From Octopus vulgaris (taxonomy: Eukaryota), in contig OX597835.1 in the NCBI GenBank assembly GCA_951406725.2, forward strand, positions 24,986,001 to 25,050,000: a stretch of DNA of 64,000 nucleotides. Direction: 5' to 3'. Shown piece by piece: positions 50,427 through 50,734 of this stretch; within the stretch, counting starts at the first letter, position 1; every line of letters starts with the position of its first letter. A program made the position numbers and the translations under genes. Below the pieces are notes generated by a model, which worked only from the letters and a program-made list of their open reading frames with translations, did not search any database and was not told the origin of the DNA.

Positions 50427-50734
50427 GTTAAGGAAGGGAATAGATAAGATCCGGGCTAATTTTTTATGGCAAGTGGAACCCCGGAAGTGGTAAATATCCA
50501 AGCAAAGTGTATACCACAGGCTACTCATAAGGCCAAGGGTATCTTGATTAAATGAAAGTTTACACTGTTGCAAGGAGGTACTTGTTAACACATGGAAGAA
50601 TTGATCACTCAATAAAGATACCCTTGGCCTGATGAGTAGCCTGCGGTATGCACCTCACTTGGATATTTACCATTTCTGAGGTTCTGCTCGCTATGAAACA
50701 TGTTGCCCAGATCTTATCTTCTCCATTCCTTAAC
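50427..50734. repeat. Long inverted repeat (about 125-bp arms, about 57-nt spacer)
   Basis: 50427-50551 is the imperfect reverse complement of 50609-50734; most differences are transitions. Confidence 0.92.
50623..50710 (+). ncRNA. Type-I hammerhead ribozyme motif with extended stem II, core intact
   Basis: CTtGGC-CTGATGA-GTAGC..GCGG..ACCTCA..TGG..CCA..TGAGGT.CTGC..GCTAT-GAAA-CATG-T-T-GCCcAG; palindromic ACATGT; predicted cut after GUU at 50704. Confidence 0.72.

Follow-up and report, generated by a model that had tools for sequence, protein, structure and literature searches.

A head-to-head hammerhead pair in the Octopus vulgaris genome as probable debris of a Penelope-like retroelement

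The inverted pair and its hammerhead motifs

We analyzed a window of 64,000 nucleotides of Octopus vulgaris DNA (assembly GCA_951406725.2, contig OX597835.1, forward-strand positions 24,986,001 to 25,050,000), in which an initial annotation made from the sequence alone had placed a divergent pair of hammerhead ribozymes, one intact and one decayed, at window positions 50427-50734. Alignment places two arms at 50427-50555 (minus strand) and 50605-50734 (plus strand), which are ~82% alike and lie head-to-head around a centre near 50605, and folding of the whole region returns a single hairpin (-174.7 kcal/mol, z -18.9). The inverted pair with divergent geometry is real; its extent is larger than had been given, as the left arm runs from about 50235 to 50607. 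The features of the locus are as follows.

50185-50234, no strand: (TA)n(CA)n microsatellite next to the long arm's 3' end, likely a remnant of the insertion target; most ends of the family abut (TA)n or (TG)n
50235-50607, minus strand: long arm, a 5'-truncated pLTR copy covering about -153 to +221, counted from where the ribozyme would cut
50235-50422, minus strand: 'tail' of ~190-200 nt, found on the long arm only and homologous to the 5' leader that precedes the ORF in the full-length copy L151/L171
50457-50465, minus strand: left hammerhead, GAAA disrupted by G12>A, with damage to stem III and H17
50525-50531, minus strand: left hammerhead, core disrupted to CTTATGA by G5>T
50605-50611, no strand: head-to-head junction of two 5'-truncated ends, with an overlap of 3-7 nt
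50605-50734, plus strand: short arm, an inverted 5'-truncated pLTR copy covering about -101 to +30
50615-50720, plus strand: type I hammerhead motif of the dimer type, with an intact core and a 2-nt stem III loop

As the initial annotation had described, the right arm holds a complete motif consisting of CTGATGA (50629-50635), a long multi-segment stem II (GTAGC/GCTAT), GAAA (50695-50698), ACATGT and GUU with H17 at 50704. CUGANGA, GAAA, NUH and helices I and II, which define type I, are all present, and the predicted cut at 50704/50705 would leave an RNA 5' end at 50705. The left arm, read on the minus strand, carries the expected CTTATGA and AAAA through a G5>T change at 50529 and a G12>A change at 50465. 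A>G editing, considered as a source of these lesions, was ruled out because the changes observed are G>T and G>A. Decay has affected the right arm as well: it has GUU in place of the GUA found in 60 of 68 family arms, it has lost 2 nt of the stem III palindrome (a loss also seen in 7 of the 68) and it differs from the family majority at 8 other positions. GUU is a poorer cleavage site than GUA. The right arm is also no longer adjoined by (TA)n.

When folded alone, the right arm forms the proximal parts of stems I and II with pairing probabilities of 0.90-0.96, and its minimum free energy is unexceptional (z -1.5). Helix III, with 2 bp and a 2-nt loop, is unpaired in these folds; this helix cannot close stably in a monomer, so a partner in the sense orientation would be needed for a dimer. 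When the left arm is present in the fold, the stem probabilities of the right arm fall from >0.9 to 0, and a read-through RNA is thus predicted to bury the right ribozyme in a long hairpin. Cervera and de la Pena 2014 (PMC4209133) describe single motifs of this minimal type as not cleaving in vitro. These three observations indicate that the locus likely has no ribozyme function today, and in the active element the ribozyme is likely to have processed tandem transcripts. Rfam returned two weak unrelated matches and no hammerhead at the locus, and for the whole window no hammerhead among the matches listed (150 of 279), which are mostly microsatellite noise. Contigs of three runs presumed to be RNA and of one unlabelled run include a few low-depth pieces at 50745-51015; they carry no end or strand information and speak neither for nor against expression.

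Elsewhere in the window a tRNA-Val(TAC) was called by ARAGORN and Rfam at 37386-37458 (minus strand), which could represent a gene or the head of a SINE, and about three telomere-like (TAACCC) repeats lie within non-coding DNA at 51525-51546. There is also a tandem array with an 18-nt unit at 58762-59085, and two dispersed repeats are each present as oppositely oriented copies that are 86-90% alike (1300-1526 with 44411-44637, and 33670-33897 with 55606-55833).

The repeat family and its parent element

The repeat occurs in high copy, with 1621 first-look candidates in the 2.8-Gb genome and 344 exact 17-mer matches against 0 in the control; from a divergence of 9.5% we estimate ~1,500-2,000 arms in the genome. 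Walking upstream from copies of the repeat, one first crosses extended non-coding sequence and then reaches fragments of broken ORFs, which match intact ORFs of 718 and 741 aa belonging to sister families in the same genome (tblastn, E down to 1e-29). PF26215 is frequent among database homologs of one sister ORF, and 2 of the 120 matches listed have PF01541, which we take to be GIY-YIG. A Pfam-A scan of nine family fragments and the two sister ORFs gave nothing significant, so our domain calls rest on motifs and on the precomputed domains of homologs. Sequence searches of the PDB gave nothing useful and a word-based homolog search with the endonuclease fragment retained 0 of 493 candidates, while a HMMER search with the thumb fragment returned 1238 matches, several of which are also homologs of the sister ORF.

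The organization of the parent element is best seen in L171, a decayed full-length copy that contains, in order, a leader, reverse transcriptase (RT), a CxCX5C linker, a GIY-YIG-type motif, CxxC and then the hammerhead. This copy begins at the ribozyme cut site, crosses a 200-nt leader into the ORF and stops just past a second hammerhead, spanning ~4 kb in a single copy that may contain internal insertions. Its hammerhead at 6725-6918 lies on the ORF strand, and the terminal-repeat hammerhead is thus sense to the ORF. A single ORF with RT plus a GIY-YIG motif at its C terminus is linked to the repeat in L171, L119 and L122, both by motifs and by tblastn matches to the sister ORFs, in agreement with the proposal that these are Penelope-type pLTR hammerheads. 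Further motifs are the CxCX5C linker before the endonuclease (L171, L122), DKT instead of DKG (L155; decayed in L151), and CxxC and CxH flanking the endonuclease's conserved E and N (L122, L123, L172); the N-terminal RWK position reads QWK in one decayed copy and RWR in a sister ORF. Most ends, as judged by eye, indicate insertion into (TA)n. Three ORF-bearing bodies (L119, L122, L123) have the same inverted copy at their 5' end, and such a copy lies upstream in 13 of 30 tail-selected copies. Thus, the pair at 50427-50734 is a heavily truncated form of the usual insertion. The tail stands at one end only, with an inverted 5'-truncated copy at the 5' end, as in EN+ Penelope-like elements (PLEs). 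Based on these motifs, the repeat is assigned to the 3' end of a Penelope-like retroelement with Hydra-clade motifs.

Hydra-clade PLEs with a C-terminal endonuclease, including Hydra-1_Obim and Penelope-13_HM, are described by Craig et al. 2021 (PMC8557442). The octopus family resembles them in having RT followed by a GIY-YIG-type motif, the CxCX5C linker, DKT, CxxC and CxH, a sense hammerhead near the 3' end and (TA)n targets, and it resembles Penelope-13_HM, for which an inverted, 5'-truncated copy is annotated there at the 5' end. Insertions in which a 5'-truncated copy is inverted and only one end has a tail have likewise been published there. The family differs from Hydra-1_oBim, one Octopus Hydra element listed in that text, in hammerhead sequence, and its unit of ~4 kb in L171, possibly with insertions, contrasts with a general size of <3 kb (PMC8557442). 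Dual hammerhead motifs 100-700 bp apart on opposite strands have also been reported (PMC4209133). With the minimal, dimeric hammerheads of metazoan PLEs in that source the octopus motif has in common a type I topology, a short palindromic helix III and dispersed truncated-PLE copies, and it departs from them by a longer multi-segment helix II, a G-U at the helix II base and a bulged helix I. Non-LTR retrozymes (10.64898/2026.07.22.740005) also combine a type I hammerhead with a PLE-related repeat. We rejected this identity because such retrozymes have tandem non-coding units that each bear a hammerhead, whereas the locus holds one inverted pair without tandem units and the repeat forms the terminus of an element that codes for protein.

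Several other elements were met during this work. L139 (2512-4737, plus strand), L140 (2007-4163, minus strand) and L141 represent younger sister PLE families with open frames of >700 aa and many copies; L121 (7531-9900, minus strand) has a 790-aa open frame for what looks by eye like a LINE-type reverse transcriptase; and a second, different PLE fragment lies beside the full-length copy at 7822-8810 (minus strand) of L171.

Core decay in inverted pairs

The initial annotation had taken the one-live/one-dead state of the pair as the sign of a recurrent mechanism, and had named random core decay across pairs as one outcome that would refute it. We counted core states in pairs that were selected without reference to the core. 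A loop II pattern gave 28 exact head-to-head matches, so that the geometry does recur as proposed, and a 3'-flank pattern gave 10, of which 6 were new; the corresponding tail-to-tail pattern had a single match, which lies outside this family. After removal of six duplicate loci there were 34 pattern pairs, 11 of which were dropped as one core had been lost to the junction or a deletion, leaving 23. Note that a pattern for short-spaced pairs only sees pairs that lack long bodies.

Both cores, one core or neither core is intact in 2, 10 and 11 pairs, respectively, against 2.1, 9.7 and 11.1 expected under independence. An alignment-free regular-expression version gave 3/9/11 against 2.4/10.1/10.4, and a strict rule on core plus stems gave 0/4/19 against 0.2/3.7/19.2; the latter rule is passed by only 4 of 46 arms, with the right arm of 50427-50734 among them. 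The surviving core is on the long arm in 5 cases and on the short arm in 4, indicating no bias. Core positions have changed at the neutral rate (48 of 502, 9.6%, versus 318 of 3393, 9.4%, at non-core non-CpG positions, P=0.87); before CpG and bi-allelic columns were removed the comparison was 9.6% versus 12.6% (P=0.06). This rate predicts that 34% of cores should be intact, and the observed fractions are 14 of 46 paired arms (30%) and 5 of 16 tail-selected copies. L141, a young sister pair with arms 98.5% alike, has both cores intact, together with the same helix III sequence, CATATG. In pairs as old as these, a state with one core intact and the other broken is thus nearly the most frequent result of blind decay. 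The random core decay named beforehand as refuting was obtained, and the asymmetric decay proposed as a mechanism is what chance produces. With n=23, a slight bias toward discordant pairs would be compatible with these counts. A literature search, which most subscription papers lay outside, returned nothing on asymmetric core decay or on this family.

These counts bear directly on the idea that the right ribozyme has been co-opted at this locus, with its dead antisense twin as a masking switch in read-through RNA. The retained core and proximal stems of the right arm and the loss of its predicted fold in the presence of the left arm would both suit such a switch. However, about 30% of arms keep their core by chance, and at this locus the right and left arms differ little in divergence (8 versus 13 changes, P=0.38). 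The right arm has moreover drifted to GUU and is short by 2 nt in stem III, in a class of motif for which the single form is uncleaved in vitro according to PMC4209133. No significant Pfam domain was found in the 51 scanned ORFs of the window's 143. An antisense hammerhead arm, to our knowledge, cannot serve as a dimer partner. We consider co-option very improbable, and the regulatory role raised earlier for the pair is unsupported, given that paired core states match chance. Since one intact motif of two is the random-decay expectation, the locus is ordinary, with a new family of a known kind that is decaying neutrally. Head-to-head hammerhead pairs with one intact core are expected Penelope-like debris, and a regulatory reading of such pairs needs a count against chance first. 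The locus itself is of little importance.

Arm length and the origin of the pairs

The real asymmetry of these pairs is in arm length and not in core decay. Relative to the cut site, the 3' termini of arms fall at about +28 to +46 or at about +210 to +248, in most cases ahead of (TA)n-type repeats. When 40 pairs were classified by these termini (long ~+235, short ~+35), 33 were long plus short, 3 short plus short, none long plus long and 4 unclassifiable; 33 of the 36 classifiable pairs thus end at different sites (P=2e-7 versus free choice). Most junctions deviate from flush by no more than 10 nt, and 5' ends are concentrated around a palindromic sequence at about -150. Arms of the same pair share 40 variants, versus 20.3 +/- 3.7 in shuffled pairs, an excess that is expected from one template or subfamily.

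The short junction overlaps and the clustering of 5' ends near the palindromic stretch could be taken to mean that the inversion arose after insertion, by fold-back duplication or repair at the DNA level. This is largely refuted by the ends of the arms, which occur at two fixed element positions with mostly (TA)n on both sides. Furthermore, we found no duplication of flanking DNA around the pair in the window, and the same structure is present in the young pair L141, making such an origin highly improbable. An alternative in which one cDNA switched template or folded back during reverse transcription, with no two-strand priming, is given somewhat more room by the junction microhomology and by the template variants common to both arms. 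A simple fold-back would, however, copy the 3' end of the first arm, which is at odds with the different ends of 33 of 36 pairs, and Frangieh et al. 2024 (PMC11167929) describe a related element whose protein uses two start sites and both cuts and extends the two strands. We regard a single-cDNA origin as unlikely.

We conclude that the pair is very probably a single old Penelope-like insertion with Hydra-clade motifs, likely primed by the two strands of a cut (TA)n target, in which both hammerheads have decayed neutrally. In such an event both strands of the cut (TA)n would prime reverse transcription on the element RNA, with one cDNA presumably starting at the distal site (~+235) and the other at the proximal site (~+35). 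Both cDNAs would stop early, no further than ~150 nt upstream of the cut site; a few bases of microhomology would probably serve to join their ends, after which both hammerhead copies would decay at the neutral rate. The proposal of dual priming draws on the two-strand cutting and extension performed by a PLE protein in PMC11167929. In that source, the protein of Poseidon_Ac (PAc) from green anole cuts and extends both target strands, two internal starts define the tail, and the protein is predicted to be dimeric and to copy mostly uncleaved RNA. The octopus family is like PAc in that two RT starts would define the tail. It differs in that PAc belongs to a different clade and starts inside the ORF, bounding a tail of 30-40 bp, whereas here two termini ~200 nt apart fall within the 5' leader, ahead of the stretch matching the sister ORFs. 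The tail of ~200 nt also exceeds the 30-40 bp given for PLEs generally.

Among 29 tail-selected copies, the 5' ends are spread across the ribozyme, which fits mostly uncleaved templates, as in PAc. No peak of 5' ends was found at the cut site in this sample, where one copy (L182) besides the query starts there. L151 at 660 (equivalent to L171 at 2927) and L182 (at 1470, element orientation) begin at the cut site, each beside a microsatellite. These starts in L171 and L182 hint at occasional cleavage; that of L171 adjoins (GATA)n, and a deletion could mimic a cut-site start. The chances seem to us evenly balanced that each pair is the fossil of one RT dimer, with two fixed starts ~200 nt apart, one per (TA)n strand, and a tail five times the usual length, and that the start of L171 is a footprint of hammerhead cleavage in vivo. 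The strict long plus short pairing, together with the 200-nt tail, provides a genomic read-out of the integration step of PLEs and could help to design an in vitro test that uses an intact sister ORF.

A second inverted pair in the window had been cited as matching the one at 50427-50734 in both geometry and decay pattern.

42894-43087, arms at 42894-42989 (minus strand) and 42997-43087 (plus strand): inverted pair of another hammerhead-motif repeat family, long plus short

This family has 843 first-look candidates, and it is long plus short in 13 of 15 pairs by script and in the other two by eye, with a tail of ~30 nt. The geometry is indeed common to the two loci and their sequences are unrelated. 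The 42.9-kb pair lacks CUGANGA and has TTGAAAA on both arms; its right arm has in addition lost G12. The two pairs have a geometry, and not a decay mechanism, in common. The U3-A8 core of the 42.9-kb pair is of a type described for metazoan PLE hammerheads in PMC4209133. The commonest core of its family is TTGAAGA (20 of 35 arms), which in L046-L065 combines U3 with G8 and so forms no Watson-Crick 3:8 pair; U3-A8 is found in 5 arms and C3-G8 in 1.
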